From positions 1 to 64,000 of the forward strand of contig CANMWZ010000018.1 of the NCBI GenBank assembly GCA_947501605.1: a DNA stretch of 64,000 nucleotides. The letters are read 5' to 3'. A model generated the notes under the pieces. The model was not told the origin of the DNA. It did not search any database and saw only the letters and a list, made by a program, of their open reading frames with translations. Made by a program: the position numbers and the translations under genes. This document shows, piece by piece, positions 29,081 through 62,808 of this stretch. How positions within the stretch are numbered: position 1 is the first letter of the stretch; each line of letters begins with the position of its first letter. This DNA is from Planctomycetota bacterium (GTDB lineage: Bacteria > Planctomycetota > UBA1135 > UBA2386).

Positions 29081-30190
29081 ATGCGTCATCTCACTATCCC
29101 CACGGGGCTCCTTCTCAGTCTTTCCGTTGCCAGCATGTCGGTCTCGGCTGCGGCCCAAGTCTTGGCCAGCGACAGCTTTTCCTATGCCGGGGCGCTGACG
29201 GCCAACGGTTGGGCGGCACACAGCGGTGCTGGCGCGAAGCTGATTCTCTCGAATGGCTCCATCGCGACGTTGAACCAGGGCCCGGGCTCGGGCGAAGACG
29301 TCAACTTGGCGTTCCCCGCGCTGACCGCGACCGACACGGTGTTCGCCTCGTTCACGTTGAATGTGCCGTCGGGCACCCCGGTCACGCCGCCCGCCGCCGG
29401 TCTCTACTTCGCGCACTTCAAGGACACGACGACACTGTTCCGCGCCCGCACCGGCGTCGTGGCGCCAACTGCTGGCGGCAACTTCCGTATCGCGATCCAT
29501 GCCGACAACGCCAACCTCTCGCTCGGCACGTCGTGGCCGACGGAGCAGGTGTTCAATACCGACTACAAGGTCGTCATCAGCTGGAACGCGGCGACCGGTC
29601 AGTCGCAGCTGTGGATCGATCCGACGGCTGTGACGGATCCGTCGATCTCCCACACGGGCACGTTGGTCGGCACGATCATCTCGCAGTTCGCGCTGCGTCA
29701 GGCGAGTGACTACACCGGCTTCCTCACCATCGACGACGTGCTCGTCGGCCGCACGTTCGCCGATGTCTGTGGAACTCCGGGTAGCTACACCACCTTCGGC
29801 GCCGGCTGCGCCAGCTCGGTCGGTGTCGCAACCAACACGGCGAGCCCGGTCCCCGCGATCGGTGTCACCACGGTGGTCACGCTCTCGCCGGTGCCGAACC
29901 CCGGCGTCGGGCTGCTCCTGATCGGCTCGAGCAACACGTTCTCGAACTCGTTCGGCCCGCTGCCGCTCGACCTCACGTTCTTCGGTGCGCCTGGCTGCAG
30001 TGGTCGCGTCAGCGATGACGTCGCGCAGTTCTTCGGCATTGGTGCGGGCAGCATCAGCTTCAACGTCGGCATCCCGAACGACCCGTTCTTCGTCGGCCTC
30101 CAGCTCTACACCCAGGGCCTCGTGTTCGAGAACGTGAACGCGCTCGGCATCGTGTTCTCGGATGCCGCGACGATGGTGATCGGCGGTTGA
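29081..30190 (+). CDS. Secreted beta-sandwich (lectin/LamG-like) protein with conserved C-terminal domain, paralog A
   Basis: Signal peptide ending AAA-Q; CTD FGAGC...GAPGC...IPND...GLQLYTQ...SDA...IGG. Confidence 0.8.
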   Translation: MRHLTIPTGLLLSLSVASMSVSAAAQVLASDSFSYAGALTANGWAAHSGAGAKLILSNGSIATLNQGPGSGEDVNLAFPALTATDTVFASFTLNVPSGTPVTPPAAGLYFAHFKDTTTLFRARTGVVAPTAGGNFRIAIHADNANLSLGTSWPTEQVFNTDYKVVISWNAATGQSQLWIDPTAVTDPSISHTGTLVGTIISQFALRQASDYTGFLTIDDVLVGRTFADVCGTPGSYTTFGAGCASSVGVATNTASPVPAIGVTTVVTLSPVPNPGVGLLLIGSSNTFSNSFGPLPLDLTFFGAPGCSGRVSDDVAQFFGIGAGSISFNVGIPNDPFFVGLQLYTQGLVFENVNALGIVFSDAATMVIGG

Positions 30191-30259
30191 GCCCAAAGCG
30201 GAGAGTTGGCAACGCCTGCGTCCAACGGACGTAGGCGCACAATCGCCATACTGCGGGCC

Positions 30260-30425
30260 GTAGACGTGGTTTCTCAAAGCGTCTGCGGCTGTGGCCGATC
30301 CCGACGGCCGATGGCTGTGTCGCGAACTCGCCGCGGAATCCACGGATCCCGCCACGAGTCCGCTCGTGGTCCTCGACTGTCGTGGCTCGGCCGCGCCCGC
30401 AGGTCCTTTGGGAAACCGCTTCTGG
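30260..30425. repeat. ~166-bp palindromic element, copy 2
   Basis: GGTTTCTCAAAG...CTTTGGGAAACC ends; colinear with copy 1. Confidence 0.75.
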
Positions 30426-30499: not shown

Positions 30500-31597
30500 A
30501 TGCGCCACTTCGCCACCACATTCCTCAGTGCGGCTCTCGCCCTTTCGACCGCCGCTTCGGCTCAGCAACTGCTGCGCGACGACTTCGCCTACGCCGGCCC
30601 GCTGACCAGCAACGGCTGGTTTGCACACAGCTCGGGCGGCCAGCGTACCATCGTGTCGTTCGGCGACTACGCGATCTTGAGCCAGGGCACGGGCGCCGGC
30701 GAGGACCTCAGCCGCGGGTTCCCGCAGCTTGCGGCGACGGACTCGGTCTACGCCGCGTTTCGACTCAACGTGCCGTCAGGCAACGCGGTCAATCCGGCAT
30801 CCGCCGGGCTCTACTTCATCCACTTCAAGGACGGTACCACGGGCTTCCGTGCGCGCACGGGTGTGCTCGCGCCGGCGTCAGGTGGTGCGTTTCGGTTGGC
30901 GATTCATGCCGACAGTGCCAATCTCGGCCTCGGCGCTGCGTGGCCATCGGATCTTGCGTTCGACACCGACTACCTGGTCGTCATCGGCTTCGATGGCGCG
31001 CTCAATCGAGCGACGCTTTGGGTCGATCCGATCACTGCAGCCTCGCCTTCGATCGGACACACCGGGACGCTGCCGACCCCGTTCGTGACCGCCATCGCGC
31101 TGCGGCAGAGCAGTGAATACACCGGCTCGCTCCGCATCGACAACCTGATCGTCGGGCGCACCTTTGTGGATGTCGCCGGCGCCGGCCGTAGCTACGTGAC
31201 GTTCGGCGCGGGCTGCTCCGGCTCGGTCGGGGTTCCGTCCAACACCGCGAGCCCGCTGCCTCGCCTTGGTCGCACGACGACGATCACCATCGGCAACGTG
31301 ACGGTGCCCGCCATCGCGCTGCTGCTGGTCGGCACCAGCAACACGTTCTCGCCGTCGTTCGGTCCGCTGCCGATCGACCTCACGGCGTTTGGTGCGCCGG
31401 GCTGCTCAGGCCGCGTCAGTGATGACGTAACGCAGTTCTTCGCTCTTGGCTTTGCCGGCGTGCCCTTTGACGTGGCGATTCCCAATGACACCTACTTCAT
31501 GGGGCTGCAGCTCTACACGCAGGCACTGGTGTTCGAGAACGTGAACCCGTTGGGGCTCGTGCTCTCGGACGCTGCGACGTTCGTCATCGGCGGCTGA
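30500..31597 (+). CDS. Secreted beta-sandwich protein with conserved C-terminal domain, paralog B
   Basis: Signal peptide ending ASA-Q; colinear with paralog A over its full length. Confidence 0.8.
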   Translation: MRHFATTFLSAALALSTAASAQQLLRDDFAYAGPLTSNGWFAHSSGGQRTIVSFGDYAILSQGTGAGEDLSRGFPQLAATDSVYAAFRLNVPSGNAVNPASAGLYFIHFKDGTTGFRARTGVLAPASGGAFRLAIHADSANLGLGAAWPSDLAFDTDYLVVIGFDGALNRATLWVDPITAASPSIGHTGTLPTPFVTAIALRQSSEYTGSLRIDNLIVGRTFVDVAGAGRSYVTFGAGCSGSVGVPSNTASPLPRLGRTTTITIGNVTVPAIALLLVGTSNTFSPSFGPLPIDLTAFGAPGCSGRVSDDVTQFFALGFAGVPFDVAIPNDTYFMGLQLYTQALVFENVNPLGLVLSDAATFVIGG

Positions 31598-31732: not shown

Positions 31733-32728
31733 TCAGCCCTTGGTCGAGAACTTCCCCAGCATCTCCTCGGCCTGCTGGGCGGCGTGCGTACCGGCGTACT
31801 TCTTGGTGCTCTTGAACTTCTCTAGTTCTTCGACCAGCTTGCGTCGTTGCGCGACCTTGCCGGCGTCGAACTTGCCGACCACCTTCTCGAGCGCCTTCGA
31901 GGCCGCGATCTCGTCCTTGACGTGCGCGTCCTTGGCAAAGCGTTCGAGCTCTGACTTGGCCGCGTCGGCGGGCGGCAGGCCGGCCCAGTCCTTTTGCAGG
32001 CGCTCCAGCTGATTCAAGGCGGTGTAGAAGTCCGGACCCTTGCCCAGCGTCTGCACGCGAGCCGTCGCGCGCTCCATCCGCTTCTGCAGCTCCGCTTGCT
32101 GGCTTTCGTAGACTGTCCGCAGTTCCGCGTCGACGGTCGGTTGCCCCAGCATCTTGGTGAGGTAGTCACCGAGCTTCTTGAACTCCTTCTTCTGCCAGAG
32201 GCTGCGAATCGCGTCGAAACGCGAATCCACCGGCATCTTGGGCGAGAGCGAGACGTTTGCGAGCTGCTCCTCGATGAATGCCTCCGTCGGCATGCGATCG
32301 TCGGGCACAGTCAGGATCGTGCCATCGGGCGCAATGCAGTAGACGCTGGGGAAGAAACCGATGCGGTACTGCTCGTTGACGCCCTTGGCGCAGACGAACG
32401 GGTACTTGGCACCGAGTTTGGTGATGAAGGTCTCTTCGATCAGGCTTTCGTTCTCATCGGACACGCCGATGAGTAGCAACCCCCGCTCCGCGTACTTCTC
32501 GTGAAGTTCGTTGAGGTGCGGGACGGCTGCCTTACACGGGCCTCACCAGGTCTGGGCGAAGTCGAGGATGACCAGCTTGCCTTCGAACTCGTCGAACTTG
32601 GCGGGGCCGTCGTTCCAGACCTTGGCGATCTCGAAGGCCGGAGCCGGCGAGCCCTTCGCGAGCTGGGCTGGCGCCGCGGCGGCAAACAGCAGCGTTGCGG
32701 CGGTGGCGAAATGGATGTTCTTGTTCAT
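31733..32728 (-). CDS. Secreted TlpA/peroxiredoxin-like thioredoxin-fold selenoprotein (UxxC) with helical C-terminal domain
   Basis: Two in-frame ORFs joined at TGA 32543-32545: GKLVILDFAQTW-U-GPCKAAVPHLNELHEKY; signal peptide, GSPAPAF. Confidence 0.85.
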
Positions 32729-36478: not shown

Positions 36479-38224
36479 TCAGATCCCGATCGTCCAACGA
36501 ACGCCGTTGGAGACGCGGTAGCCAAACGCATTGGCCGTGAGGTCGTCGCTGATCGCTTGCGACATCAGTTGCACGCCGACGAAGGCGGGCGTGTTGGGGA
36601 TCGCGATCAGGTAGGTCGTGGTTGGCGCGCCGAGCGTCAGGTTGAAGTACGAGAGCAGCTCCGGCAGCGCGATGTAGGCCGTGCAGCCAGTGAGGCCGAA
36701 GCCATCGAGCGGGAAGCCGCCGGGGAGTTCGTTGCTGATCAACAAGATGCTGAAGACACCGTTGGGCAGGCTCGCGATGTTGTTGGTATCCAGCGTGTAG
36801 TTGCTGCCGATGGTCGGAACCGAGCCGGTTGGGACCGACAGGGTCAGCGGGAACACCTGGGTGCCCGGTACGGTGAGACCATTGACGGTTGACAGGTCGG
36901 CGGCGCCGGAGTTCTGCACGTTGCCGCCGCGCGAGTATCCCGCCAGGAAGAAGCCGGTGTTCAGCGACACGTTCTGCCAGCGGATCGTGAACTGACCCGT
37001 CGGGCTGAGCGCGATCTGGACGTTGATGGGGGTCGCCGCGCCGTACTCCGGCACGTTGCGCCAGCTGATAACGAATTCGCCAGTGCCGGCGTCGAGCGCG
37101 TGCTCAACCGTGCCGCCAGAGGTCGGATCGAGGTCTTCCCACCAAGCTGCAATGCGAGCCGGTCCGCTGACGAGCACAGCAGGGTCTCCCGTGCAGCACC
37201 CGTCACCCGGATCCGTACCGCCGATGGTCAAGAAGCCGTTCGACGACACATAGATCGAGGTCTCGTTGGCGCCGTTGAACGGGAACGCGAACGGCAAGGG
37301 GACCAAGTGCGAACTGTCATCGAGTGCCAGCAGTGGGGTTCCAGCGCCAGCGAACCACACCGGCGAAAGGCCGGGCAGCGCGATGTAGTCGTTGCCCGAC
37401 GGCAAGAAGCTGAGGTTGAGGCCGCTGAGGTCGGGGGCGTTGTTGGCGCTGAACTGCTCATAGAGCGTGGGCGAAGCCGCAGCCGGGCAGCCAGCGCCGA
37501 CTACGGTCGAGGTGGCGACGTTCGACGTGCACGTGACGTCGGTGACGACGTAGCCAGGGTTGGTCGGCGTGAACAGCCACTTCGAGTTGGCGTAGGGCAG
37601 GAGCTGGCCGGGAGCACGCGTGATCACTTGGGCAAATGCGTTGGTCGCGATGTTCAGCGGGCGCGTGGCGAAGTTGACGGTCGGTGTCGCCACACCAGGA
37701 CTCGCGCCGATGATCGCGGTGTTGGCCTGGAACGTCGACGTCGTGCCCAACGTGCCGTAGGCCACCGTGAAGGTGTTGTTGGCGAAGAGCGAGATCTGCA
37801 TCGTGCCTGGCAACGTCGTGCCGTAGGTGTAGACGCGGATCCACGAAACGCGCGCGACGCCCGGCGTCGAGTTGTCGAAGTAGACCTGGCCGCTGCCCGC
37901 AATCGTGGGGTTGAAGTCGTTCCAGTAGGGGCAGATGCGCGCGCCGCCGGTCGCCATCTCAGCGAGCGTTGGCGAGTAGTCGCCGCCGTTCAGCGTCGAC
38001 ACGTTGGTGGAGCCGAGCACGAGGTAGCCGTTGGCGCACACCGAGATGCTGCTGTGGACAACACCGTTGTAGGTGAACGAGAACCCGAGGGGCAGCGGTG
38101 CCGTGACCTGGTCGTCACCGAGTGCGAGGCTGGGCCCGAAGTTGGTGTCGAAGCACGGACTCTGGGCCAACAGAGATGCAGCAAAGCTGGCTGCGAGAGC
38201 GGACGAGAGAAGGCTGCGGAGCAT
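36479..38224 (-). CDS. Secreted double nidogen(NIDO)-like domain protein with CTD, array gene 1
   Basis: Signal peptide; two DD..LxFxF...SxNGxL...RIxxxWxDxxP repeats; CTD ending ANAFGYRVSNGVRWTIGI. Confidence 0.8.
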   Translation of the reverse strand: MLRSLLSSALAASFAASLLAQSPCFDTNFGPSLALGDDQVTAPLPLGFSFTYNGVVHSSISVCANGYLVLGSTNVSTLNGGDYSPTLAEMATGGARICPYWNDFNPTIAGSGQVYFDNSTPGVARVSWIRVYTYGTTLPGTMQISLFANNTFTVAYGTLGTTSTFQANTAIIGASPGVATPTVNFATRPLNIATNAFAQVITRAPGQLLPYANSKWLFTPTNPGYVVTDVTCTSNVATSTVVGAGCPAAASPTLYEQFSANNAPDLSGLNLSFLPSGNDYIALPGLSPVWFAGAGTPLLALDDSSHLVPLPFAFPFNGANETSIYVSSNGFLTIGGTDPGDGCCTGDPAVLVSGPARIAAWWEDLDPTSGGTVEHALDAGTGEFVISWRNVPEYGAATPINVQIALSPTGQFTIRWQNVSLNTGFFLAGYSRGGNVQNSGAADLSTVNGLTVPGTQVFPLTLSVPTGSVPTIGSNYTLDTNNIASLPNGVFSILLISNELPGGFPLDGFGLTGCTAYIALPELLSYFNLTLGAPTTTYLIAIPNTPAFVGVQLMSQAISDDLTANAFGYRVSNGVRWTIGI

Positions 38225-38356
38225 GGGACTCCTGAGAGGGGTGTATGGCCAGTGGGGGACAATGGGAGCTGGCCGGGGTGGATTGCGACGAACGCTGTCC
38301 CCTTGGGGTTCCATCTTGCCATACCCGCGATCCCGTGCCTGTGGGGTTGCAGCACA

Positions 38357-38403: not shown

Positions 38404-38418
38404 CGGGCGCGAGCTAGA

Positions 38419-40179
38419 TCACAGACCGAGGATCCAGCGGACGCCGTTCGACACGCGGTAGCCGAAGGCATTTGCGGTCAGGTCATCGCTGATCGCCTGC
38501 GACATGAGCGTCACGCCGGCGAAGGCGGGGACGTTTGGGATCGGGATCGAGAACGTCGTGGTTGGCGCGCCAAGCGTCAGGTTGAAGTACGACAGCAGCT
38601 CTGGCAGCGCGATGTAGGCCGTGCAGCCAGTGAGGCCGAAGCCATCGAGCGGGAAGCCGCCGGGGAACTCGGTGCTGATCAACAGGATGCAGAAGATGCC
38701 GTTCGGCAGGCTCTGGATGTTGGTCGCATCGAGCGTCATGGTCTGGCCGAGCTGCGGCAGGCCCGTCGGGGTCAGTTCGAGCGGAACCGAGATCAGGCCG
38801 CTGACCAGCTGGCCGCTGACCGCCGAAATGTCGGTGACACCCGGATCCCCCGTGTTGCTGCCGGCGGAGTAGCCGGAGATCCACGTGTGACCTTGGTCGC
38901 TCACCGACTGCCAACGGATGGTGAACAGGCCGCTCGGGTTCAGCGCGATCTGGAAGGTCTCTAGCGGGCCTGCAAAGAACTCGGGGACCTGATTCCAGGT
39001 GATGACGTACTCTCCAGTCGCGACGTCGAAATCGGCGAAGACGCCGCCGCCGGGGCCGGCGCCCGGAGGATAGATGTCCGCCCAGAAGCCCGAAATGCGC
39101 GGTGGCCCGGAGAGCATCGTCAAGACGTCGCCTGAGCAGCAGCCGCTGAACGGATCCGTAGCACCCAGCGTGAGGAAGCCGTTCGACGAGACGTAGATCT
39201 GGGTCTCGACCCCGCCGTTGTATGGGAACGGGAACGGCAACGTGATCTGGATCGTCTCGTCGTCGTTCATCAGGAGGTTGTTGGTGAACCCGGCGTACCA
39301 CGTCGGGGCCACGTTCGGCAGGGCTAGGTAGTCGATAGCCCCCGAGGGCACGAAGCTCAGGTTGAGGCCGCTCAGGTCCGGCTGGTTGCCGAAGGTGTCG
39401 AAGATCTCGTAGAGCGACGGGCCGCTGCGACCAGGGCAGCCGCTACCGACGACCTCCGTCGAAGCGGGGCCGGGGAACGAGTTCGGCGTGCAGGTGAGGT
39501 CCGAGACTACGTAGCCTGGGGACGTCGGCGACCACAGCATCTTGAAGCCGAAGGGGATCGGCAGGCCGGGCGTTGTGCCGACGAAATCGCTGAACGAGTT
39601 CGAGGCGGTGACGACGGGCCGGGTCGCCAGCGAGATGGGATTCGAGACCGCGCCGAAGCCCGGGCTCGCGCCGATCAGGTAGTCCGTGCTGAACGCACCG
39701 ATCTCGAGGGTCGGGCCGTAGGCGATGGTGACGCTGTTGCTGGCGTCGAGTGTGAGCTGGAAGCTGTTCGGCGTCGTGGTTGCGAATGCGAACACGCCAG
39801 CCCAAGAGATTCGGGCGACACCGGGCGTCGAGTTGTCGAAGTAGACGTGGCCGCTGCCGGTGGCACCTGGATTGAGGTCGGTCCAAAAGGCGCAGATGCG
39901 TGGATCACCGGCCAGCAGCTCCGCTTCGGTCGGGGTGTAATCGCCGCCGAACTGAGGGTTGACGCTGCCGAGCCAGATGTACCCATTCGAGCACACCTGA
40001 ATGTCCGTGTAGGTGACGCCGTTGTAGGTGAAGTTGAAGCCGAGCGGCAACGGTGCCGACGTGTCGTCGTCGAAGAGATTCAGGTCGGTGCCGATCGTGA
40101 GATCGAAGCACGGGCCCTGCGCAGGGAGCGTCGCGAAGAGAGTCGTCGCGATCGCGGCAGTCAGAATGCTGCGAAGCAT
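38419..40179 (-). CDS. Secreted double NIDO-like protein with CTD, array gene 2
   Basis: Same architecture as gene 1; RBS AAGGA. Confidence 0.8.
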   Translation of the reverse strand: MLRSILTAAIATTLFATLPAQGPCFDLTIGTDLNLFDDDTSAPLPLGFNFTYNGVTYTDIQVCSNGYIWLGSVNPQFGGDYTPTEAELLAGDPRICAFWTDLNPGATGSGHVYFDNSTPGVARISWAGVFAFATTTPNSFQLTLDASNSVTIAYGPTLEIGAFSTDYLIGASPGFGAVSNPISLATRPVVTASNSFSDFVGTTPGLPIPFGFKMLWSPTSPGYVVSDLTCTPNSFPGPASTEVVGSGCPGRSGPSLYEIFDTFGNQPDLSGLNLSFVPSGAIDYLALPNVAPTWYAGFTNNLLMNDDETIQITLPFPFPYNGGVETQIYVSSNGFLTLGATDPFSGCCSGDVLTMLSGPPRISGFWADIYPPGAGPGGGVFADFDVATGEYVITWNQVPEFFAGPLETFQIALNPSGLFTIRWQSVSDQGHTWISGYSAGSNTGDPGVTDISAVSGQLVSGLISVPLELTPTGLPQLGQTMTLDATNIQSLPNGIFCILLISTEFPGGFPLDGFGLTGCTAYIALPELLSYFNLTLGAPTTTFSIPIPNVPAFAGVTLMSQAISDDLTANAFGYRVSNGVRWILGL

Positions 40180-40395: not shown

Positions 40396-42162
40396 TCAGA
40401 GGCCGAAGTTCCAGCGGAGACCGTTCGACACGCGGTAGCCGAAGGCGTTCGCGGTGAGGTCGTCGCTGACGGCCTGCGACATCAGGCTGACGCCGTAGAA
40501 GGCGTTGTCGTTCGGGATGCTGATCGGCCACGACGTGGTCGCTGCGCCCAGCGTCAAGTTGAAGAACGACGCGATCTCTGGCAGCGCGACGTAGGCCGTG
40601 CAACCTGTGAGGCCGAAGCCGTCGAGCGGGAAGCCGCCCGGGACTTCGGTGCTGATCAGCAGGATGCAGAACACGCCGTTCGGCAGGGTCTGGACGCCGG
40701 TCGCATTGACCGTGAACGTGCCGCCGACTTGCGGGCGCGAGTTCAGGGCCGCCGCGATCGACAGCGGCGTGACCGTCGCCGGGATGTTGTTCGAGTAGTA
40801 GCCCAACGGCTGCGTCAGCACCAAGTAGTCGAGGCCGGTGTTGAACATCACGACTTCGAGGCCAGTCATGTCGATCGGCGACGCGTTGTTCGCGAACGTC
40901 TGGTACATCGTCGTGGCGTTGACGCCGGCGACGCCCGAGATGTCCGTGACACCCGGATCCGCAGCGCCGCCACCGACCGAGAAGCCGGTGAGCGCCACGC
41001 GCGTGGCGCTGACGATGCCGACGTTCAGGAAGCGCATCGTGACGGTGCCCGTCGGCGACAGCGCGATCTGGAAGTTGTTCGCCGGCTGCGGGGTGGCGCC
41101 GAACTCACCAGCGGAGACCCAGTTGATCACGTACTCGCCCGTGATCGCATCGACGTAGGCGTTGACTTCGCCGTTGCCGGTCGCCGACAGGTTGAGGTCC
41201 TGCCAGAAGGCCGCGAGGCGCGTCGGGCCCGTAAGCAGCGTGGCGGGGCTACCGGCGCAGCAGCCAGAGCCTGGGTTGGTCGTGCCGAGGGTCAGGAAGC
41301 CGTTCGACGAGACGACGATGTTGTTGAACGTGCCCGTCGGTGCCGGGAACGCGAACGGCAGGGTGAGTGCATGCGTGGTGTCGTCACCGGCGTTGAGGGC
41401 CGGGCTCACAAGGGCTGGGCAACCGACGCCGACGACTGCCGAGCTGGCCGGGGGCGGCAGCTGGTTCGGCGTGCAGGTGACATCCGAGATCACGAAGCCG
41501 GGGTTGGTCGGGGTCCACAGCATCTTGAAGTTGCCGTAGGGGATCGGGACGCCGTTCACTGCCGGAATCGCTTCCGAGAACGTGTTCGACGTCGAGATGA
41601 TCGGGCGCGTGGCGAACGAGACCGGGTTGGCCACCGAGGCAGCACCGGGGCTGGCGCCGATGAGGACGGTCGTGTTCAGCGTGCCGGGAACGGCCGCGGC
41701 GCCGTAGGTGACCGTGACGCTGTTGCTGGCATCGAAGCTGACCTGGAAGTTGATGCCAGTCGTCGTGCCGAAGGCGAACACACCGGCCCAAGTGACCGTG
41801 GCGACGCCCGGCGTCGAGTTGTCGAACCAGACTTTGCCGCTGCCGACCGCGCCCGGGTTGAAGTCGCTCCAGAGCGGGCAGATGCGCGGCGCACCGGCGA
41901 GCAGTTCGGCCTCGGTCGGCGAGAAGTCACCGCCGGCGATGCCGGTCGTGCCGAGCCAGATGTAGCCGTTCGAGCACACGCTTACCTGCGTGTAGGCGAC
42001 ACCGTTGTAGGTGAACGTGAAGCCGAGGTTCTGGGCCGCCGACGTGGAGTCGTCGATCAGCGCGAGATCGGTGCCGAGAGGGAGGCTGAAGCACGGGGCC
42101 TGGGCGCCGAGTGAGGCGGCGAGGGCCGTTGCAACGGCGGTCGTGAACAAACTACGAATCAT
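40396..42162 (-). CDS. Secreted double NIDO-like protein with CTD, array gene 3 (internally permuted)
   Basis: Same architecture, but a ~45-aa module is relocated after the second NIDO-like core. Confidence 0.8.
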   Translation of the reverse strand: MIRSLFTTAVATALAASLGAQAPCFSLPLGTDLALIDDSTSAAQNLGFTFTYNGVAYTQVSVCSNGYIWLGTTGIAGGDFSPTEAELLAGAPRICPLWSDFNPGAVGSGKVWFDNSTPGVATVTWAGVFAFGTTTGINFQVSFDASNSVTVTYGAAAVPGTLNTTVLIGASPGAASVANPVSFATRPIISTSNTFSEAIPAVNGVPIPYGNFKMLWTPTNPGFVISDVTCTPNQLPPPASSAVVGVGCPALVSPALNAGDDTTHALTLPFAFPAPTGTFNNIVVSSNGFLTLGTTNPGSGCCAGSPATLLTGPTRLAAFWQDLNLSATGNGEVNAYVDAITGEYVINWVSAGEFGATPQPANNFQIALSPTGTVTMRFLNVGIVSATRVALTGFSVGGGAADPGVTDISGVAGVNATTMYQTFANNASPIDMTGLEVVMFNTGLDYLVLTQPLGYYSNNIPATVTPLSIAAALNSRPQVGGTFTVNATGVQTLPNGVFCILLISTEVPGGFPLDGFGLTGCTAYVALPEIASFFNLTLGAATTSWPISIPNDNAFYGVSLMSQAVSDDLTANAFGYRVSNGLRWNFGL

Positions 42163-42382: not shown

Positions 42383-44137
42383 TCAGAGGCCGCCGATGTT
42401 CCAGCGGAGGCCGTTCGACACGCGGTAGCCAAAGGCGTTGGCCGTCAGGTCGTCACTGATCGCCTGGGTCATGAGCGACAGGCCCAGGAACGCATTGTCG
42501 TTCGGGATGCCGATCGTGAAGGTCGTGCTCGGGGCGCCGATCGTCAGGTTGAAGAACGACGCGATCTCTGGCAGCGCGACGTAGGCCGTGCAGCCCGTGA
42601 GACCAAAGCCGTCGAGCGGGACGCCGCCCGGGATCTCGGTGCTGATCAGGAGGATGCAGAACACGCCGTTCGGCAGGCTCTGGATACCGCTGGCGGTGGA
42701 GCTGAAGGACAGACCGATGGTCGGGCGGGTGCCCGAGGCAAAGCCGAGCGACAGCGGAATGGTGCGGCAACCGAGGTTGACGCCATTGAGTGCCGACACG
42801 TCACTGCTGCCGGGGTTCGTCGCACCGCCACCGCTGCTGTAGCCAGTGAGTTGGGTGCCGCCGGCGAATGCCAAGGCGACCCAGCGGATCGTGAACTGGC
42901 CCGACGGGCTCAGGGCGATCTGGAAGGTCTCGGTGTTGGTTTGGCCGAACTCGCGGACCGCGTTCCATGTGATGCAGAACTCACCCGTCACGGTGTCGAG
43001 GTCGGCAAAGACCGCACCGCCAGCGGCGGGGTTCAGGTCTTCCCACATGCCAGCGATGCGCGGCGAGCCGGCGAGCAGCGCCACGGGGTCACCCGCGCAG
43101 CAGCCCGAGCCCGGATCCGTGCCATCCAGCGTGATGAAGCCGTTCGACGAGACCCAGACGTTACTGACCGTGCCGCCGCCGTGCGGGAAGGCGAAGGGCA
43201 GCGCGACATTGCTCGTGCTGTCGTCGGTGAGCAACAGGTTGTTGGCGGCGCCAGTGAAGAACGTCGGCGAGATGCCGGGGACCACGAAGTAGCCGCCGCA
43301 GCCGTTCGGGACGAACGACTTGTCGAGGCCGGCGAGGTCGATCGAGGCCGGGACCGTGAACGTCTCGTAGACCGAGACGCTGGTCGCGGTCGGGCAACCG
43401 GTGCCGACGACCGCTGCGCTACCAGGAAGCGGCAGCGGGATCGCCGTGCACGCGACGTCGGTGATCACGAAGCCCGGGGACGTCGGGGTCCACTGCATCT
43501 TCGTGTTGGCGTACGGCGCCACGGTGCCCGTGGGATTGAGGATGACCTGATAGGTCGTGTCCGAAGCGCTGATGATCGGACGCGGCGTCAGCACGATGTT
43601 GTTGGCAACCGCGCCGCCACCCGTCGTGGCACCGATGATCGTCGTGCCGCCCTGGGCCGTCGACGACGGGCCGAGCTGACCGATCGTGACCGTCACGCTA
43701 TTGGTGAGGTCCAACGTGATCTGCATGTCGGTCTTGATCGTCGTGCCGAACGTGTAGACGCCGGCCCACGTGACGCGGGCGAAACCCGGGGTCGAGTTGT
43801 CGAAGTAGACGTGGCCGCTACCGACGATAGTGGGGTTGAAGTCCATCCACGCGCCGCAGATGCGCGGGCCCTGCGCCAGCAGTTCGGCTTCGGTCGGGTT
43901 CCAATCGGCAACGGCATTGGCCGCGCCAAGCCACACGTAGCCGTTCGAGCAGACGCGGACTTGCGTGTAGGCAACGCCGCCGTAGGTGAACGTGAAGCCG
44001 AGATTCAGAGCTGAAGACGTGGTGTCGTCACCCAGGTTGAGATCGGTGCCGGCCGGCAAGTCGAAGCACGGGGCCTGGGACGTGAGACCAGCAGCAAAGG
44101 TTGCTGCAACAAACGTAGTGAGCAAGGTACGGAGCAT
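42383..44137 (-). CDS. Secreted double NIDO-like protein with CTD, array gene 4
   Basis: Same architecture; leader TACATCGAGGAA shared with gene 3. Confidence 0.8.
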   Translation of the reverse strand: MLRTLLTTFVAATFAAGLTSQAPCFDLPAGTDLNLGDDTTSSALNLGFTFTYGGVAYTQVRVCSNGYVWLGAANAVADWNPTEAELLAQGPRICGAWMDFNPTIVGSGHVYFDNSTPGFARVTWAGVYTFGTTIKTDMQITLDLTNSVTVTIGQLGPSSTAQGGTTIIGATTGGGAVANNIVLTPRPIISASDTTYQVILNPTGTVAPYANTKMQWTPTSPGFVITDVACTAIPLPLPGSAAVVGTGCPTATSVSVYETFTVPASIDLAGLDKSFVPNGCGGYFVVPGISPTFFTGAANNLLLTDDSTSNVALPFAFPHGGGTVSNVWVSSNGFITLDGTDPGSGCCAGDPVALLAGSPRIAGMWEDLNPAAGGAVFADLDTVTGEFCITWNAVREFGQTNTETFQIALSPSGQFTIRWVALAFAGGTQLTGYSSGGGATNPGSSDVSALNGVNLGCRTIPLSLGFASGTRPTIGLSFSSTASGIQSLPNGVFCILLISTEIPGGVPLDGFGLTGCTAYVALPEIASFFNLTIGAPSTTFTIGIPNDNAFLGLSLMTQAISDDLTANAFGYRVSNGLRWNIGGL

Positions 44138-44357: not shown

Positions 44358-46112
44358 TCAGAGGCCGAGGTTCCAGCGCAGGCCGTTGGAGACGCGGAAA
44401 CCAAAAGCGTTGGCGCCGAGATCGTCACTCACCGCCTGTGACACCAGGGACACGCCGGCGAAGGCTGGGTTGGACGGGATCGCAATCGAGTAGGCAGTCG
44501 TTGGCGCGCCAAGCGTCAGGTTGAAGTAGGACAGCAACTCCGGGAGGGCGACGTAGGCGGTGCAGCCGGTGAGGCCGAGCCCGTCGAGCGGGACACCGAC
44601 CGGAACCTCGAGGCTGATCAAGAGGATGCAGAAGACGCCGTCTGGCAGCGGCTGGATGCCGCCAGCGTTGACGGTGAAGGTCGTGCCGATCGAGGGGCGC
44701 GAGTTGGCGGCAGCCGCGATCGTCAGCGGCGCCCGGACCGTGGCACTGATGGTGCGGCCATTGACGGCAGTCAGGTCCGTCGAGCCGGTGTCGGGAGTGC
44801 CGGTGCCGCGCGAGTAGCCAGCGAGGTAGCTGCCGCTCGTGCGCGCCACGTTTTGCCAGCGCGTTGTCATCATGCCGCTTGGGCTGAACGCGATTTGGAA
44901 GGTGTTGGGGCTGCTCGTGCCGTACTCGACCACCGCGTTCCAGGTGACCACAAAGTCACCGGACGTGGCGTCGAAGTCGGCGTAGACCGCGCCGCCGGCG
45001 GCGGGGTTCAGGTCTTCCCACCAGCCGCACAAGCGTGGCGAGCCCGCGAGCATCGTGGCGACGTTCGGCGTGCAGCAGCCACTGCCGGGACTGGCGCCGC
45101 CAATCGTCAAGAAGCCGTTCGATGACACGTAAATCGTCGACTCGCTGGAGCCGTTGAACGGCAGCGGGAAGGGCAGCGTGATCGGCACGGCCGCGTCGTC
45201 ACCAAGGAACAGGTTGTTGCTGAAGCCCGCGAACCACGTCGGTGAGATGTTGGGGATCGCGATGTAGTCCGTGGCGCCGGCCGGCAGCAAGCTGAGGTTG
45301 AAGCCATTCAGGTCCGCGGCGTTCGTTGGCGTGAACAGCTCGTAGAGCGAAGGGCCGCTGCGGCCAGGGCAGCCGTCACCGAGGATCTGCGAGCTCGCCG
45401 GCACCGGCAACGAGTTCTGTGTGCAACTGACATCAGTGATGACGAAGCCCGGGCTGGTCGGCGTCCACAACAGCTTGACGTTGCCGTAGGGGATCGGAAC
45501 GCCGCTCACCACCGCGAGGGCTTCATGGAACGTGTCCGAGGTCGAGATCATCGGTCGCGTGGCCAGCGAGACCGGGTTCGAGAGCGCGGCGGCACCAGGA
45601 CTGGCGCCGATGACGATCGTCGTGTTCAGCGTGCCGGGGACGGCCGGGGCGCCATACGCGATCTGGATACTGTTGGTCTGATCGAACGTGACCTGGAAGC
45701 TCGCTGGCGTTGTGGAGCCGAACGGATAGACCCCAGCCCACGTCACGCGGGCGCTGCCTGGCGTGGCGTTGTCGAAGTAAATGTGGCCGCTGCCGGGCGC
45801 ACTGGGATCAAAGTCGCTCCACATCGGGCAGATGCGCGGCGCGCCGGCGAGCAGCTCGGCGGCAGTCGGCGAGAAGTCACCGCCGGCGATGCCGGTCGTG
45901 CCGAGCCAGATGTAGCCGTTCGAGCAGACACTGATCTGCGTGTAGACGACGCCGTTGTAGGTGAACGGGAAGCCGAGACTCAGAGCGGGCGACGTCATGT
46001 CGTCGGTCAGAGCGAGGTCGGTGCCGAGCGCGAGATCGAAGCACGGGCTCTGGGCTGCGAGCGCGGCGGCGACGCCCATGGCGAGCACAGAAGCGGCGAT
46101 TTGACGGATCAT
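44358..46112 (-). CDS. Secreted double NIDO-like protein with CTD, array gene 5
   Basis: Start MIRQIAAS by alignment with the paralogs; the upstream part of the 1198-aa ORF is spurious. Confidence 0.8.
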   Translation of the reverse strand: MIRQIAASVLAMGVAAALAAQSPCFDLALGTDLALTDDMTSPALSLGFPFTYNGVVYTQISVCSNGYIWLGTTGIAGGDFSPTAAELLAGAPRICPMWSDFDPSAPGSGHIYFDNATPGSARVTWAGVYPFGSTTPASFQVTFDQTNSIQIAYGAPAVPGTLNTTIVIGASPGAAALSNPVSLATRPMISTSDTFHEALAVVSGVPIPYGNVKLLWTPTSPGFVITDVSCTQNSLPVPASSQILGDGCPGRSGPSLYELFTPTNAADLNGFNLSLLPAGATDYIAIPNISPTWFAGFSNNLFLGDDAAVPITLPFPLPFNGSSESTIYVSSNGFLTIGGASPGSGCCTPNVATMLAGSPRLCGWWEDLNPAAGGAVYADFDATSGDFVVTWNAVVEYGTSSPNTFQIAFSPSGMMTTRWQNVARTSGSYLAGYSRGTGTPDTGSTDLTAVNGRTISATVRAPLTIAAAANSRPSIGTTFTVNAGGIQPLPDGVFCILLISLEVPVGVPLDGLGLTGCTAYVALPELLSYFNLTLGAPTTAYSIAIPSNPAFAGVSLVSQAVSDDLGANAFGFRVSNGLRWNLGL

Positions 46113-47978: not shown

Positions 47979-50969
47979 TCACGGAACGAACAGACTCTTG
48001 TGCTGGTTCGACAGCGTGAAGCTGCCGTCCGGCTCGAACACCAACACCTGCGTGTAGAGCAGGATGCCCTGCGCGGGCATGCCCGGGAACGACGGGAAGT
48101 TCAGGCTGTAGAGCCCGGTCGGACCTGAGAAGTCAGTGAAGAAATCGAGCGTGCCACCGACCGAGGCGGTCGGGAAACCAGGAGCGCTCGTCGGGCCGCC
48201 AGTGTCACCGAGCACCAGCACGAACAACTTCGCGGCACCGTTGGTGGTGATTGCGATGTTGACGTTCTGGCTGGCGCTGGACTGTTCCGGCGTCATCTGC
48301 AGAGTGGCCGCGAGCGGCGGCACGGTACGCGTGCCGAGTTCGAGGTCGTCGATCGTCCAGCCGCCGAGTTGCAGACCGCCGTCCGTGATCAGGCGGAACT
48401 CGACCTGCACCGATGGATTGTTGTCTGCCATCGGCAGCGCGTACTCGAAGGTCTGCCACGACGTGTCGATCAAGTTGCCGGTGGTCGGGTTCTGCCAGAC
48501 GAGCACCCCGTTCACGTTGATCTGGGCCTGATCGAAGACGGCTTCTTCGACCGTGAGCCAGCGCTTGAAGCGCAGCACGACGCCCGAGCGGCCGGTGCAG
48601 TCGATGATCGGTGACCGCACGAACTCGTTGATGCTCGCCGGGTAGGCACCATTGGCCGTGCCGGTGCCGAGGTCGGTCGCCACCGCGCGCGTGCCGGTCG
48701 GAGCGCCGAGCGGATCGGCCCAGGCGATGCCGAGCGAAGTGCCCAACTTGCCGTTTGGCGCGCCGAACTGCCAGTCGACCGTGCCGGTCGTGCTGGAGCG
48801 GCCAGTGGTCCAACCCGCGGGTGTGCCAGCACCTTCGAAGCCCTGCGAGAAGAACTGGACGTAGGTGCCACCGAGGCTGCCGCTCACCGTGTAGGTGAGT
48901 TCGCCGGTCAGCGGGAAGCGACCTGTTCCAGTCGTGCTCGTGGCTTCGACGTGGTAGCTGATCTGGCCCGAGGACAGGCCCGGCAGCATCGAGCGGTAAC
49001 CCGTCAAGGTGCCGTCCGTCACCATGTTGCGCGTCTGCGTGGGCCCACCGGCGGCCGAGTAGACAAGGCGCATCTGCGTGATCGCGCCGAGGTCGTTGGC
49101 GATGCCCTGGGCGCTGACGAGGCGCGAGTTGTAGCGGTCGCCCGTGTTCGTCAGTGCCGTGTGTACGACGGTCACTGGCTGGAACGTGGGGAACGGGATC
49201 GCCTTGATGTTGGCCGCGGCGCTGAGTTCGGTGTAGTGCGGGACGCCGTTGAACAGGTTGCCGTCGTCGTCATCCGCGATGAACACTTCACGCACGGCGT
49301 CGACGCGCGTCTGCGCGTTGGCGACCAACGTGCCGATGACGATGTCGTTCGTCAGTGCGATTGCTGCAGGGCTGCCAAGGCTCGTGCGCAGTTGCTGACG
49401 CAGTTGCCAGGCAAAGCCCATCCACACCTGTCCCGCTGTGTGCGGCGAAGTGCCGGAGGCCGGCCACAGCAGCGTGTTGTTGCCACTGCGCAGCGCGACG
49501 TTCGCGGTCTGGAAGCCACTGCCGAGCGACGGGCTGTCGACGAGGTAGAGGCCGACGACGTCGCCCCAGCCTTCGCTCAAGCCTTCGGCGTTCGAGTTGA
49601 AGATGCCACCGTAGCGCTCGTCGATGCCGTGGCCCCATTCGTGGGCGATGACCGTCGAGAATGCCGTGTTCGCGCAACCGCCGCCCTGGGCGTAGAAGTT
49701 GATCGTGTTGCCCGTGTAGTAGGCATTGCACGTCGACGCGATGTTGACCGTCGGCGTGATGCCGCTTGCGGTCGCGAGTTGCGCCGAGTTGCCGAGGATC
49801 GAGCGGCAGAACTCGTTGGTCCGGTCGATCCAGTAGCTGGTCGTGACGTCCGAGGCCTGTTCGGGCGTGTCCGTCGAGGCGCCCAGCTGGACCGTGTTCG
49901 GCACGCCTGGCGTGATCGTGAAGGTGCCGCCAGTCGACTGGCCCCCGATCAGCGTGGCGTGGTGGCGACCGTCGAGCGCGCCGATCGTGATGTTGACCGG
50001 TACTGCGATGTCGACCGTGAACTGGCCGTTGTTGTCCGTCGTCACGTTGCCGATGCCCGGAACGTTGACCACGAGGCCGGGGATTCCGGCGTTGCTCAGC
50101 GCGCTGAAGGCGTCGTTGCCGGTGCGGGTCCACTGCTGGACCGTCACCGTCGTCTGGACGAGGGCGCTGCCGTCCTTGCCCTTGATCGAGGCCGCGAGGC
50201 GAGCCGTCTCGGAAAGGCTGCAATTGGCCATGCCGCACTCGTGCTTGTCGGTGCGGAAATGGAGGACGTTGCCGTTCTTGGCGTCGATGTAGTAGCGGCC
50301 GATCGGGCCGAGGCCTTCGGCGTCGACGTTGCTGACCGGGACTTCCCAGGCCAGGTAGATCGGTGCCGCGTCCTGAGCTTCCACGTCGCCCCAGATGACG
50401 AGCCGCAGTTCGCGCGGCTTGCCGGGCTGGGTGACGCCGGTCGGCTGCTGGCCGAGGGCCATCCAGGCACGCGCAGTCGCCTCGGCTTCTGCGATCGTCG
50501 GCATGACGTCGAAGTTGGCGGGGACTTGCCAAGCGGTGCTGCCGATCATGGCGAGCACGCCCTTCATGTTGATGCGGACGTCGGCGCGCCCGTCGATGCA
50601 GGGCAGACTGCGGAAGTACTGGTCAAAGGTGAACGACCAAGTGCGACCCATGCGCGCACCGATGCTCTCGCGAAACTCGGAGACGCCGAGGCCGAGAAGG
50701 TCACCGTGCTCGCCAAGGGCGAGGTTGGCGTGGCGGCGGGCCTCTTCGATCGAGTTGCCGCGCCAACCGGCGAGCGTGGCGCCGGAGCCGTAGATGGCGC
50801 GTGGGGTGTTGGTTGCAACTGTCCATTGCGCCAGCCATTGGCCGCCGAGCCGTTCGCTCAGTGCTGGGAAAGGCATGGGCTGGAAGTTCTTCGAAAGGGG
50901 CACCTGCTTGGTGTCCTGTGCCATGGCGAAGGACGCCAAGATCAGACTGAGAAGCGGCGTGAAACGCAT
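47979..50969 (-). CDS. Secreted M4/M36-type zinc metallopeptidase with propeptide, accessory beta domains and CTD variant
   Basis: CNAYY, HEWGH, LSEGWGD, PH..GQVW; FTP/PepSY-like propeptide (YYIDAKNG); GWTIDD domain; terminal GILLYTQVLVFE...LSN. Confidence 0.85.
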   Translation of the reverse strand: MRFTPLLSLILASFAMAQDTKQVPLSKNFQPMPFPALSERLGGQWLAQWTVATNTPRAIYGSGATLAGWRGNSIEEARRHANLALGEHGDLLGLGVSEFRESIGARMGRTWSFTFDQYFRSLPCIDGRADVRINMKGVLAMIGSTAWQVPANFDVMPTIAEAEATARAWMALGQQPTGVTQPGKPRELRLVIWGDVEAQDAAPIYLAWEVPVSNVDAEGLGPIGRYYIDAKNGNVLHFRTDKHECGMANCSLSETARLAASIKGKDGSALVQTTVTVQQWTRTGNDAFSALSNAGIPGLVVNVPGIGNVTTDNNGQFTVDIAVPVNITIGALDGRHHATLIGGQSTGGTFTITPGVPNTVQLGASTDTPEQASDVTTSYWIDRTNEFCRSILGNSAQLATASGITPTVNIASTCNAYYTGNTINFYAQGGGCANTAFSTVIAHEWGHGIDERYGGIFNSNAEGLSEGWGDVVGLYLVDSPSLGSGFQTANVALRSGNNTLLWPASGTSPHTAGQVWMGFAWQLRQQLRTSLGSPAAIALTNDIVIGTLVANAQTRVDAVREVFIADDDDGNLFNGVPHYTELSAAANIKAIPFPTFQPVTVVHTALTNTGDRYNSRLVSAQGIANDLGAITQMRLVYSAAGGPTQTRNMVTDGTLTGYRSMLPGLSSGQISYHVEATSTTGTGRFPLTGELTYTVSGSLGGTYVQFFSQGFEGAGTPAGWTTGRSSTTGTVDWQFGAPNGKLGTSLGIAWADPLGAPTGTRAVATDLGTGTANGAYPASINEFVRSPIIDCTGRSGVVLRFKRWLTVEEAVFDQAQINVNGVLVWQNPTTGNLIDTSWQTFEYALPMADNNPSVQVEFRLITDGGLQLGGWTIDDLELGTRTVPPLAATLQMTPEQSSASQNVNIAITTNGAAKLFVLVLGDTGGPTSAPGFPTASVGGTLDFFTDFSGPTGLYSLNFPSFPGMPAQGILLYTQVLVFEPDGSFTLSNQHKSLFVP

Positions 50970-58381: not shown

Positions 58382-58391
58382 GGCAACTGGT

Positions 58392-59927: not shown

Positions 59928-60000
59928 GGGCGGGCAGGATAGGGGCCCGCCGCGCGCATGGAAGAGCGGGCAGCGGGTTGCGTCGGCAGCCCGCGGTGCG

Positions 60001-62808
60001 TCACTGCGCGCGCAAGTTCGTCTGCAGGCCGTCCGACGACGACAGGCCTTGCGGCTGGCAGGCGTCGAACCACGCGAACTGCGTGTAGATCGGCAAGCCG
60101 TCGTAGAGCAGCAGGCTCGGCAGCGGCAGCAACCGTGCGGCCGTGCCCTGCGCGTCAGCCGCGAGGAACTCAACCCACGCCGAGGGGTTGGCGAGATCGA
60201 CCAGCACGGTGACTCCGGCGATCGGCACGTTTGCCGAGGCGAAGCCGAGTGCGAAGAAGCCGGCGCCGCTTGCGGGGGCGTTGTCGCCGACAAGGGCAAA
60301 CGTCGCGCTGCCGAGGCGGGCTTCGCTGTTGGCGCGAATGCGCGGTGCACCTGGACAACCGTTGGTCGCGATGCCGTACTGGATCGACTGCTCGTCGCCA
60401 TCCAGTGCGTTGTCGAGGTCGCGATCGCGCGCCATGCGCTGGCCCGCACCCGGCGGCACGCCGGTGAAGGTCAGCGCGGCATTGCCTGCCTGCGCCAGTG
60501 CGACGAGCTGCGTGCGCGTCTGCGCCACGAAGCCCGTGGCGTTGCCCTGGAAGGAGCCAAGTGAGGTCGAGTAGAGCAGGCCGCGGACGACGCTCGAAAC
60601 CGTGCCTTGGGCGACGACGTCAAGGTCTCCGGCGATCGCGCGCGCGATCAGCAGATCCAGGTCGGCAAGGGCCGCCGCGTTGGTCGCGTTCGATTGGTCG
60701 ATCGTGACCTGCAGGCCGACGGCCGGCGCCGTGCCGGTGTCCATGGCCATGACGAAGGGGACGATCTTCGACATCACGTTCGCGCCCAGCGCCGAGCGCC
60801 ACGGGTTGAACACTGGCAGGGCGAGGAAGTCCGCGACGGTGCCCACCGAGCCATCGTGCGTGTAGCCAAAGCCGCTCTTCTGCGGACCCGCCGTCCGCGT
60901 CAAGCCGACCTTGCGGTACATGTTGCGCAACTGTGCGACCTTCATCTGCTGCGGCTCTTGCAGGATCGAGCCAGTGACAACCTGTCGGTTCGTGCCGGTG
61001 AGGTTGCCGACGTCGTGGGTGTGGCAGGTGTTGCAGCTGATCGTGACGAATCCGCCAAGGTTGCTGGCGGTCGCGTCAAACGCCACCTGGCCTTCGGACT
61101 CGCTGGCGCCAGCCGGCGTGGTGCGCAGCGTGCGCGTCTTCAGCTGGTTCGGGTTCGGCGGGAACGCGATGCTGGTCGCGAACTGCGCGTAGAGGTTCAT
61201 GTCTGCAGTCGACAGCAGCGAGCCGCCCATCAGCGAGTTGAAGGCGCCATTGAACGCCTGGAAGTTGACGCGATCGCCGCGCCAGTGGAACGGCGCAGTT
61301 GCCGACAGACCCTTCAGAGTCTGCGTCGTCATCGCGCCCTTCATCGGGTGGAACGACGACAGCGGCAGAAGGTTGAACGGGCTGACGGTGTTCACCGGCG
61401 CCGAAGCCATGGTGCCGCTCGGATCGCCGAGGTCCCATGAGAGGCCGTCGAGGTCGCCATCGGTGTGGCACGAAGCGCAGCTCATCGTGCCGTTACCGGC
61501 GAGCTTGGCGTCGTAGAGGAACTTGCGGCCGTCGCGGATATTGGTCGGCGTCGGGTCGTAGGAGCCGAGCGCCACTTCGCCTAGCAGTGCATTGCTGCTG
61601 GTGTCGATCACACTGATCGACGACGAGAGCTTGTTGTGCACGTAGAGGCGCTGGGTTGCTGTTGCCAGTGCGAGGCCACGCGGGCCGCGCTTGTTGATGG
61701 TGTTGATGAGCGCGCCCGGCGTGCCGCCCATTTCGATGCGCGCGAGCACATTGCCACTGCCGTCGAGCACGCCGATGCGGTCGGTGCCCTGCGCGGCGAC
61801 GTAGATGCGACCGACGGCGGCGTCGATGGCGACGCCGTAGGGTTCGGCAAGGGCCGTCGACAGCGCTGCGTTGTTCGGCAGCAATGCGTAGTTGATGCCC
61901 GGGTTGAGGTCGATCGGCGTGACCACCGGCGAGGCGCCCGTGGTGATGCGCGTGATCCGGCTGTCGATCGCGTGGCCCTTGAGCACCGGCTCGAACGCGA
62001 CCAGGTTGCGCGCTTCGGTATTGGCAACCCAGAGATCGCCGGTCAGAGGGTTCACAGCGATGCCGGTGTTGGTGGTCCCGACGGCGCGGAAGTTGCGCGT
62101 GACAGTCAGCGACGCGACGTCGATTTCGGCGATGTCGTTGTCAGGCAACGTGAACGGGATCTGCGCGGCCCACGCTGGGTCGTCGGCGCGGACGATCTTG
62201 CTGGTCAGCGGCGCGGCCGGCAGCGACGTATTGGTGGGCGCCGGTTGTGACTGGTTTGGAACCGTGGTGGTGCCGTTACCCGAGCGCTGCACGACGGCGT
62301 AGACCTTGGTTCCGGCAGCGTTGACCGCGAGGTTGCGCGGGTCCTTGCCGAATACCGCGACAGAGCCCAGCGACGCGCGAGACGTCGCATCGAACACGGC
62401 GACGCGATCGCTGGCTGCCGCTGTCACGAAGGCTTTGCCGCCCGCGAACACGACGTCCGATGGCTCGTCGGCGACTTGCAGAGTGGCGACGACGCGACCC
62501 TGAGCCAGCGACACGATGCTGACCGAGTCAGAGAGGTGGTTGACAACCCAGACTTCGTCGCTGGTGCGCGGATTGACGGATACTGGCTCGAGGCCGACGG
62601 GGATCTCGTGCAGCAGCACCGGCGCGTTCGGGTTCTGCAGGCTGTAGACGCAGAGCCGTTGGTCGGCAGTGTGCGCTGCAAACAGCCGCGTGCCATCGGC
62701 GGAGAGGCGGATCGAGCTGACGATCGGACTCTCGTAGTTGACGAACGACTGCGCATTGGCCGCGACCGTCAGGAGCACTGCTGCCGCGAGGACATGGGAT
62801 CGATGCAT
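60001..62808 (-). CDS. Secreted YVTN beta-propeller + di-heme cytochrome c (CcP/MauG-like) protein with CTD variant
   Basis: Signal peptide; propeller blades; CASCH and CNTCH; HPMKG, PFHWRGDR; terminal GLPIYTQ...SSDG. Confidence 0.85.
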   Translation of the reverse strand: MHRSHVLAAAVLLTVAANAQSFVNYESPIVSSIRLSADGTRLFAAHTADQRLCVYSLQNPNAPVLLHEIPVGLEPVSVNPRTSDEVWVVNHLSDSVSIVSLAQGRVVATLQVADEPSDVVFAGGKAFVTAAASDRVAVFDATSRASLGSVAVFGKDPRNLAVNAAGTKVYAVVQRSGNGTTTVPNQSQPAPTNTSLPAAPLTSKIVRADDPAWAAQIPFTLPDNDIAEIDVASLTVTRNFRAVGTTNTGIAVNPLTGDLWVANTEARNLVAFEPVLKGHAIDSRITRITTGASPVVTPIDLNPGINYALLPNNAALSTALAEPYGVAIDAAVGRIYVAAQGTDRIGVLDGSGNVLARIEMGGTPGALINTINKRGPRGLALATATQRLYVHNKLSSSISVIDTSSNALLGEVALGSYDPTPTNIRDGRKFLYDAKLAGNGTMSCASCHTDGDLDGLSWDLGDPSGTMASAPVNTVSPFNLLPLSSFHPMKGAMTTQTLKGLSATAPFHWRGDRVNFQAFNGAFNSLMGGSLLSTADMNLYAQFATSIAFPPNPNQLKTRTLRTTPAGASESEGQVAFDATASNLGGFVTISCNTCHTHDVGNLTGTNRQVVTGSILQEPQQMKVAQLRNMYRKVGLTRTAGPQKSGFGYTHDGSVGTVADFLALPVFNPWRSALGANVMSKIVPFVMAMDTGTAPAVGLQVTIDQSNATNAAALADLDLLIARAIAGDLDVVAQGTVSSVVRGLLYSTSLGSFQGNATGFVAQTRTQLVALAQAGNAALTFTGVPPGAGQRMARDRDLDNALDGDEQSIQYGIATNGCPGAPRIRANSEARLGSATFALVGDNAPASGAGFFALGFASANVPIAGVTVLVDLANPSAWVEFLAADAQGTAARLLPLPSLLLYDGLPIYTQFAWFDACQPQGLSSSDGLQTNLRAQ

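Follow-up and report, generated by a model that had tools for sequence, protein, structure and literature searches.

Why do exported proteins with quite different passengers end in one and the same domain? The question is raised by positions 1-64,000 of contig CANMWZ010000018.1 (assembly GCA_947501605.1), a 64,000-nucleotide stretch (the window) from a Planctomycetota bacterium (UBA1135; UBA2386) whose genome, here called the source genome (G000), is 4.65 Mb in size, 66% GC and 91% complete. An earlier note, made from the window sequence, had pointed to nine unrelated secreted proteins with a common C-terminal domain, and had proposed that this domain routes or anchors them at the cell surface by the logic of the C-terminal domains (CTDs) seen in T9SS, the type IX secretion system. 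We found that the shared domain belongs to a large uncatalogued family that is real, and consider it fairly probable that it is a retained, non-covalent docking module holding Sec-exported enzymes and adhesins on the outer surface in several uncultured Planctomycetota lineages.

Detection and extent of the domain family

All nine open reading frames (ORFs) were confirmed, each with a signal-peptide-like N-terminus, and all nine carry the common domain, which measures ~125-135 aa. On the forward strand, g1 (29081..30190) consists of a signal peptide, a passenger of ~210 aa without a Pfam family and the shared domain (~29783-30190), and is followed by its paralogue g2 (30500..31597; 62% identical; domain ~31205-31597). 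The remaining seven genes are on the reverse strand. Five of them form an array (36479-46112) that arose by tandem duplication with a period of ~1.97 kb and a protein identity of 46-58%: a1 (36479..38224, 581 aa, domain ~36479-36880), a2 (38419..40179, 586 aa, domain ~38419-38811), a3 (40396..42162, 588 aa, domain ~40396-40794), a4 (42383..44137, 584 aa, domain ~42383-42778) and a5 (44358..46112, 584 aa, domain ~44358-44750). The passenger of a1 is NIDO-like, and the NIDO match of the array passenger is below the Pfam cut-off in a2 and a4. An M36/M4-like metallopeptidase, mp (47979..50969, 996 aa), with Pfam matches under the cut-off, ends in a divergent copy of the domain without a Cys pair (~47979-48338), and pc (60001..62808, 935 aa), a beta-propeller and di-haem cytochrome c peroxidase-like protein, carries the domain at ~60001-60375. 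The description of the nine as unrelated stands in so far as there are four passenger types, but g1/g2 and the array are sets of paralogues.

Pairwise comparison of the tails was significant for g1, g2 and the five array genes (E 1e-4 to 1e-10) and marginal for pc and mp. A first hidden Markov model (HMM) was seeded on the seven tails of g1, g2 and a1-a5 and iterated over 32,843 six-frame ORFs of the source genome; it recovered pc unprompted (E 1e-6, then 1e-20) and matched ~100-110 further ORFs and zero reversed-ORF decoys. The mp tail was missed by the first models (5 bits), and a direct homologue search with it returned only four, near-identical proteins. It was recovered by a broad model run on the last 150 residues of 3,663 gene calls, with an E value of 1.9e-5 before it entered the training set and 1e-9 finally (best reversed decoy 0.22). 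A looser iteration on envelope coordinates drifted, with the model growing to 212 columns, and was discarded. The broad iterated HMM placed the shared domain on 138 of the 3,663 genes, a few of which are fragments or probable false positives.

As the earlier note had supposed, the family is uncatalogued: no named family was found for it in Pfam, NCBIfam, PDB sequences or the ESM Atlas, and the nearest ESM Atlas clusters are all unnamed and from Planctomycetota (30/30). The domain is undescribed in the literature searched, although supplements or newer database entries may mention it; in the portion of bioRxiv 10.1101/817700 reached by the search terms, there is nothing on such a domain. The family is new; its kind, a surface tag, is already known. 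A search of 1.84 billion representatives at 50% identity gave 30,439 matches at E ≤ 0.001, which places it among the largest uncatalogued bacterial domain families met in this survey. The best 150 of these representatives all have a copy ending no more than 7 residues from the C-terminus, and named homologues are "hypothetical proteins" of Planctomycetota metagenome-assembled genomes.

The distribution of the domain is all-or-none by lineage. It was detected in 40 of 41 relatives, most with at least 105 matches, and in 61 of 61 genomes sampled from the class (from 5 to at least 70 matches each), where approximately 4% of genes carry it in every genome. In a sample of the phylum, 32 of 151 genomes were positive, comprising the source genome, 30 genomes with six or more matches and one with a single match, and 119 had no match. 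Eleven genomes that were located by way of g1 homologues ending in a different tail (Bacteroidota, Verrucomicrobiota, Pirellulales and others) had zero copies. Divergent variants ending in Q-W-Y-R-D presumably resemble proteins of the OM190/Saltatorellus clade. In an entire class of planctomycetes that are common in freshwater and sediment, the domain marks most of the predicted extracellular enzyme set, and with a model of it thousands of "hypothetical" proteins would receive an annotation as surface-exposed.

Position, passengers and predicted fold

The domain is present in one copy per protein in 138 of 138 genes of the source genome and in 149 of the top 150 library matches. The strictly C-terminal position implied by the T9SS-like logic of the earlier note does not hold: about one copy in nine is N-terminal, inserted or stand-alone. 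Among the 138 genes, 122 have a C-terminal copy, 10 have a copy followed by 13-60 aa (approximately three of these being probable false positives or fragments) and six have an N-terminal copy, and at least seven proteins (135-186 aa) consist of a signal peptide and the shared domain alone. The six N-terminal copies are in three FGE-sulfatase-domain proteins and three Kelch proteins. The FGE-sulfatase fold is also used by GldK and GldJ of the T9SS. The FGE-sulfatase (SUMF1-like) paralogues with an N-terminal shared domain, at C5:37845, C2:121930 and C40:32010 of the source genome, are without a lipoprotein Cys.

Signal-peptide-like starts, scored with a home-made heuristic, were seen in 83% of the complete domain genes (110/132) versus 29% of the other genes (915/3,207), a co-occurrence that the earlier note had proposed to check, and many of the 22 domain genes failing the rule show a signal peptide on reading. 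Passengers were scanned in 80 domain ORFs. Among the enzymes are S8, trypsin-like, M12 and M14 peptidases, sulfatase, GHL10 and cytochrome c peroxidases, and other modules include FG-GAP, Kelch, RCC1, CHRD, LTD, NIDO, PKD and laminin B; these are typical outside-the-cell enzymes and adhesion modules. The passengers of 107 domain proteins fall into 63 components.

The copies within the source genome have a mean column identity of ~21%, and family-wide only a P (92%) and a Q (93%) are near-invariant. The terminal motif given in the earlier note matches eight of the nine window proteins but only 9 of the 138 domain genes genome-wide, and GxGC, said to be present in most of the nine, occurs in two; together with G-x-P-G-C it forms an optional Cys pair. 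The claim that a C-terminal transmembrane (TM) helix or basic tail is missing was borne out, with only 3 of 130 domains having a 19-aa window of Kyte-Doolittle (KD) hydropathy ≥ 2.0. The shared domain is unusually hydrophobic and uncharged: its grand average of hydropathy (GRAVY) is 0.52 over 130 domains, compared with 0.05 over 267 windows of passenger sequence (2% of these windows are as high as 0.52), and charged residues (D+E+K+R) make up 7.3% of the domain versus 12.6% of the passenger windows.

An AlphaFold model built from a 62-sequence alignment (pLDDT 96.6) is all-beta, with an immunoglobulin (Ig)-like sandwich. The best match in a wide structure search with this model reached Z 8.1, tied between generic Ig, FN3 and macroglobulin (MG) domains, and the PorU chain aligned at Z 7.0 with a root-mean-square deviation (rmsd) of 3.4, level with unrelated Ig domains. 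Foldseek returned weak matches only, to the ML-type lipid binders GM2A, NPC2 and MD-2 (TM-score 0.3-0.45, rmsd 6-13). ML chains were outside the top 50 of the wide structure search, and no Pfam match to an ML domain or a carbohydrate-binding module (CBM) was obtained. The generic fold, these weak Foldseek matches and the flexible position would suit an ordinary accessory module that binds carbohydrate, peptidoglycan or lipid and has spread by shuffling, with no sorting role. Such a module is highly improbable here: the domain is never repeated within one protein of the source genome, sits on peroxidases, sulfatases, proteases and adhesins alike, is swapped for sorting tags and not for CBMs (see below), and is on approximately 4% of genes in every genome of the class.

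The stand-alone proteins, the high hydrophobicity with little charge and the tolerance of position would also be compatible with a self-assembling coat subunit, whose hydrophobic layer or fibre would display fused passengers without a separate partner, and none of four partner candidates described below is co-distributed with the domain. The low identity between copies within one genome speaks against a single lattice interface, the conserved P, G, Q and S look structural, and there is one copy per chain; a coat of this kind is given a slim chance.

Some copies are placed inside another fold. In six or seven proteins of the source genome, the domain is followed by 31-45 residues that correspond to the end of the same passenger domain in its uninterrupted form (E 4e-5). 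In an AlphaFold model of one such protein (111 sequences, pLDDT 94.1), residues 1..327 align to single contiguous jelly-roll/CBM-like domains (Z 10.7, 9.1, 8.7 and 8.4; 140-149 residues aligned, rmsd 3.1-3.8; best alignment Z 10.7 with 149 residues and rmsd 3.1), and Ig domains align to residues 166-297. Sequence and predicted structure agree that the shared domain is inserted inside a jelly-roll, and this architecture is kept in 192 proteins with up to 86% identity. A copy placed within the passenger fold makes a free C-terminus unnecessary, and its excision would split that fold, which favours retention of the domain. One inserted-copy protein (L039, C58:1323-2360, 348 aa) has 192 homologues, with 55-86% identity among those listed, and given this unusual conservation it is possibly a core envelope part rather than cargo.

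Exchange with known sorting tags

The g1 passenger has 137 homologues, and the following counts are from the 120 among the matches listed. At the same junction, the shared domain was found in 34 of the 120 with the A1 model and in 54 with the broad model, which was partly trained on the tails that it counts here. The other tails are a TM helix with basic residues (37), PVEL..F (10), WGxxK (6), HYR (3) and T9SS (2), with eight unclassified. Example tails are assigned by NCBIfam to PEP-CTERM, IPTL-CTERM and T9SS type A, and no variant of the shared domain receives a name there. In a tree of the passenger (FastTree, 112 rows, the eight unclassified homologues being left out), at least seven changes separate the shared domain from other tails, and in clades with a support of 95-99, TM tails sit amid rows that carry the domain. 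Two records of one assembly (L090 and L091) hold one paralogue with each tail type. Taken together, the passenger alignment and tree indicate that tails have been exchanged repeatedly on one passenger, with the shared domain alternating with PEP-CTERM, IPTL-CTERM and T9SS tails. NCBIfam has no name for two further short tags that end proteins with the g1 passenger, PVEL..F.[VI]E and WG.[IVL]K.LY[RK] (P0246-P0262).

The likeness to T9SS CTDs lies in a Sec signal, varied passengers and one tail per protein, here of predicted Ig-like fold, with tens to hundreds of such proteins, in the all-or-none distribution by lineage and in the exchange on the same passenger (P0265). The shared domain differs in that it has no sequence match to them, is not strictly terminal, is Lys-poor and hydrophobic, and is larger (130 versus a model of ~75 aa). 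PF18962 and TIGR04183 gave zero matches in 8 window proteins, 80 genome ORFs and 5 genomes; the type A model scores the real T9SS tail P0265 at 2e-15. SprA_N and PorP/SprF were not found in the four domain-bearing genomes searched (G000, G014, G029 and G180), with a positive Hymenobacter control and very divergent homologues possible; neither PorV (weak control) nor peptidase C25 (the control for which gave no match either) was found in the source genome.

These results weigh on the proposal that the domain is a translocation signal for a dedicated outer-membrane secretion machine, a T9SS analogue, whether cleaved or not, with the non-terminal copies being machine parts or exceptions. Such a signal would explain the C-terminal position of most copies in the source genome and of all top 150 library matches, the single copy, the predicted Ig-like fold, which resembles that of T9SS tails, the swap with a T9SS type A tail and the distribution between genomes. 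It sits poorly with the N-terminal, stand-alone and inserted copies, with the conservation of the inserted architecture, with the missing T9SS components and with the fact that most swap partners are anchors rather than translocation signals. As SprA and PorP were not found and some copies of the domain are N-terminal, stand-alone or inserted, it does not appear to be a T9SS-type terminal signal, and a translocation signal is considered unlikely. The T9SS-like logic of the earlier note thus survives in the single copy, the varied exported passengers, the all-or-none occurrence and the exchange with real sorting tags, and not in a strictly terminal routing signal; anchoring is the better fit of its two suggestions and routing the poorer. 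In the account of T9SS CTD rules in PMC10202324, type B and PorZ tails are not cleaved and dock on beta-barrels, a precedent for a docking tail that is retained.

Exosortase tags, for which PEP-CTERM (TIGR02595) and IPTL-CTERM (TIGR04174) serve as comparison (PMC1569441), share with the domain the same position on the same passenger and the large number per genome. The shared domain is instead a folded unit of 130 aa, without the short motif, TM helix and basic tail. The exosortase family PF09721 was detected in three of four domain-bearing genomes tested; the fourth (G029, 89% complete) has 39 domain copies and no exosortase match. The only exosortase of the source genome lies within an exopolysaccharide cluster, and a scan turned up one PEP-CTERM protein. 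Another genome, which has at least 150 copies of the domain, encodes a g1-type passenger with a TM tail (L095) and, two ORFs downstream, an exosortase-family gene, which scores over the cut-off of the signature model and at 74 bits with the XrtH model, below its cut-off of 86.

Dockerins offer another comparison, a dockerin/cohesin "planctosome" having been hypothesised for other Planctomycetota in bioRxiv 10.1101/388082. Dockerin type I (PF00404) is likewise a single retained module that is position-flexible, non-covalent and found on diverse exported proteins, but the shared domain has no EF-hand repeats, is all-beta and is twice the size. There are 0 matches to PF00404 in the source genome, and scaffold-like tandem repeats were not found in its proteins of >500 aa (E 1e-4), no search aimed at cohesins having been made. 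The shared domain is complementary to dockerin expansions across genomes: expansions of dockerin I occur in 4 of the 21 domain-negative genomes (39 copies in G027, the sole domain-negative genome of the same order, and 12, 34 and 95 in the others), and never exceeds 4 copies in 24 of 24 domain-positive genomes. The shared domain fits neither the dockerins, the T9SS tails nor the exosortase tags; its way of working would resemble that of dockerins or of T9SS tails that are not cleaved, and it likely does the job that these tags do elsewhere.

Putative route to the surface, partner candidates and neighbouring genes

A retained docking module would be used as follows. The proteins would be exported by Sec through their N-terminal signal peptides, as the heuristic scores suggest, and the domain is predicted to adopt its Ig-like sandwich, to which a Cys-paired loop subdomain can be added, while in the periplasm. 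The outer membrane would be crossed by a general route, with the type II secretion system (T2SS) as the most likely one, as six secretins are present in the source genome and T9SS parts were not found. The domain would then stay on the protein, as argued for by the N-terminal, stand-alone and inserted copies, and would dock through its hydrophobic, nearly uncharged surface on an outer-membrane protein, a lipid or other copies of the domain.

Several points weigh against a retained docking module at the outer surface. The secretins on which the T2SS route depends are also present in the domain-negative G027; a partner was not found, as the four candidates examined fail to track the domain; and the C-terminal position of ~88% of copies would be explained equally well by a translocation signal. 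Retention of the domain proteins in the periplasm may also be compatible with the data, and some of the hydrophobicity may lie hidden beneath the loop subdomain. In addition, the tags are not strictly exclusive, since dockerin is not expanded either in 17 of the 21 genomes that lack the domain, and four of five genomes with a TM-tailed g1 homologue also carry the shared domain.

The candidates for a partner were a large lipoprotein family (A3), present in 11 of 46 genomes and order-wide, including G027; a second lipoprotein family (A4), present in 8 of 12 positive genomes and 1 of 12 negative genomes (G027); a barrel (L074), found only in G027 among 5 genomes; and a 2,114-aa protein (L085), found in 0 of 5 genomes, which is uninformative. 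No shared neighbour was found around the stand-alone and N-terminal copies. Big_5-like predicted lipoproteins of 600-1,300 aa cluster in the source genome at C1:174953-188411 (L067), C20:9217-11952 (L069) and C2:21881-24859 (L068). They are order-wide and present in several other domain-positive families, with none in the more distant negatives tested, have a jelly-roll module in common with domain-bearing proteins, and are possibly a general surface scaffold.

A bolder version of the docking proposal is put forward tentatively, as possible and rather less probable than not. The domain would be the address label of an undescribed surface-display system in deep-branching Planctomycetota, with its own envelope component. 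One hydrophobic Ig-like module, present on at least 4% of genes, would connect any exported protein to a shared outer-surface receptor or self-built coat; it would not be cleaved and could take any position in the chain. If true, this would add a third solution to the two offered by sortase-type anchoring and cohesin-dockerin assembly. The family makes testable how planctomycetes without a T9SS display degradative enzymes, and a cleavage-free, position-tolerant anchor would be useful as a display tag.

A weak hint of transcription comes from freshwater RNA libraries of two studies (X3 and X4), the contigs of which span almost the whole of a1-a4, mp and pc at 99% identity. Two runs of sediment RNA (X1 and X2) gave an even, DNA-like coverage of the region and are uninformative on expression. 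Within the array proteins, the NIDO-like module is duplicated internally and the module order differs in a3. Inverted repeats at 38352-38408 and 36414-36449/42307-42342, may be terminators.

Elsewhere in the window, a tyrosine integrase (74-1222, reverse strand) lies at the start of the contig, and a run at 17188-26533 on the forward strand, which we take from the resemblance of its translations to be flagellar basal-body and switch genes, reads flgB-flgC-fliE-fliF-fliG-fliH-fliI-fliJ...fliM-fliN. An exported AhpC/TSA-thioredoxin ORF (31733-32728, reverse strand) has an in-frame TGA exactly at the first Cys of its CxxC motif (W-U-G-P-C). Read through this codon, it encodes a 331-aa protein that matches AhpC-TSA at E 1e-13, and it is likely a UxxC selenoprotein that annotation would split.

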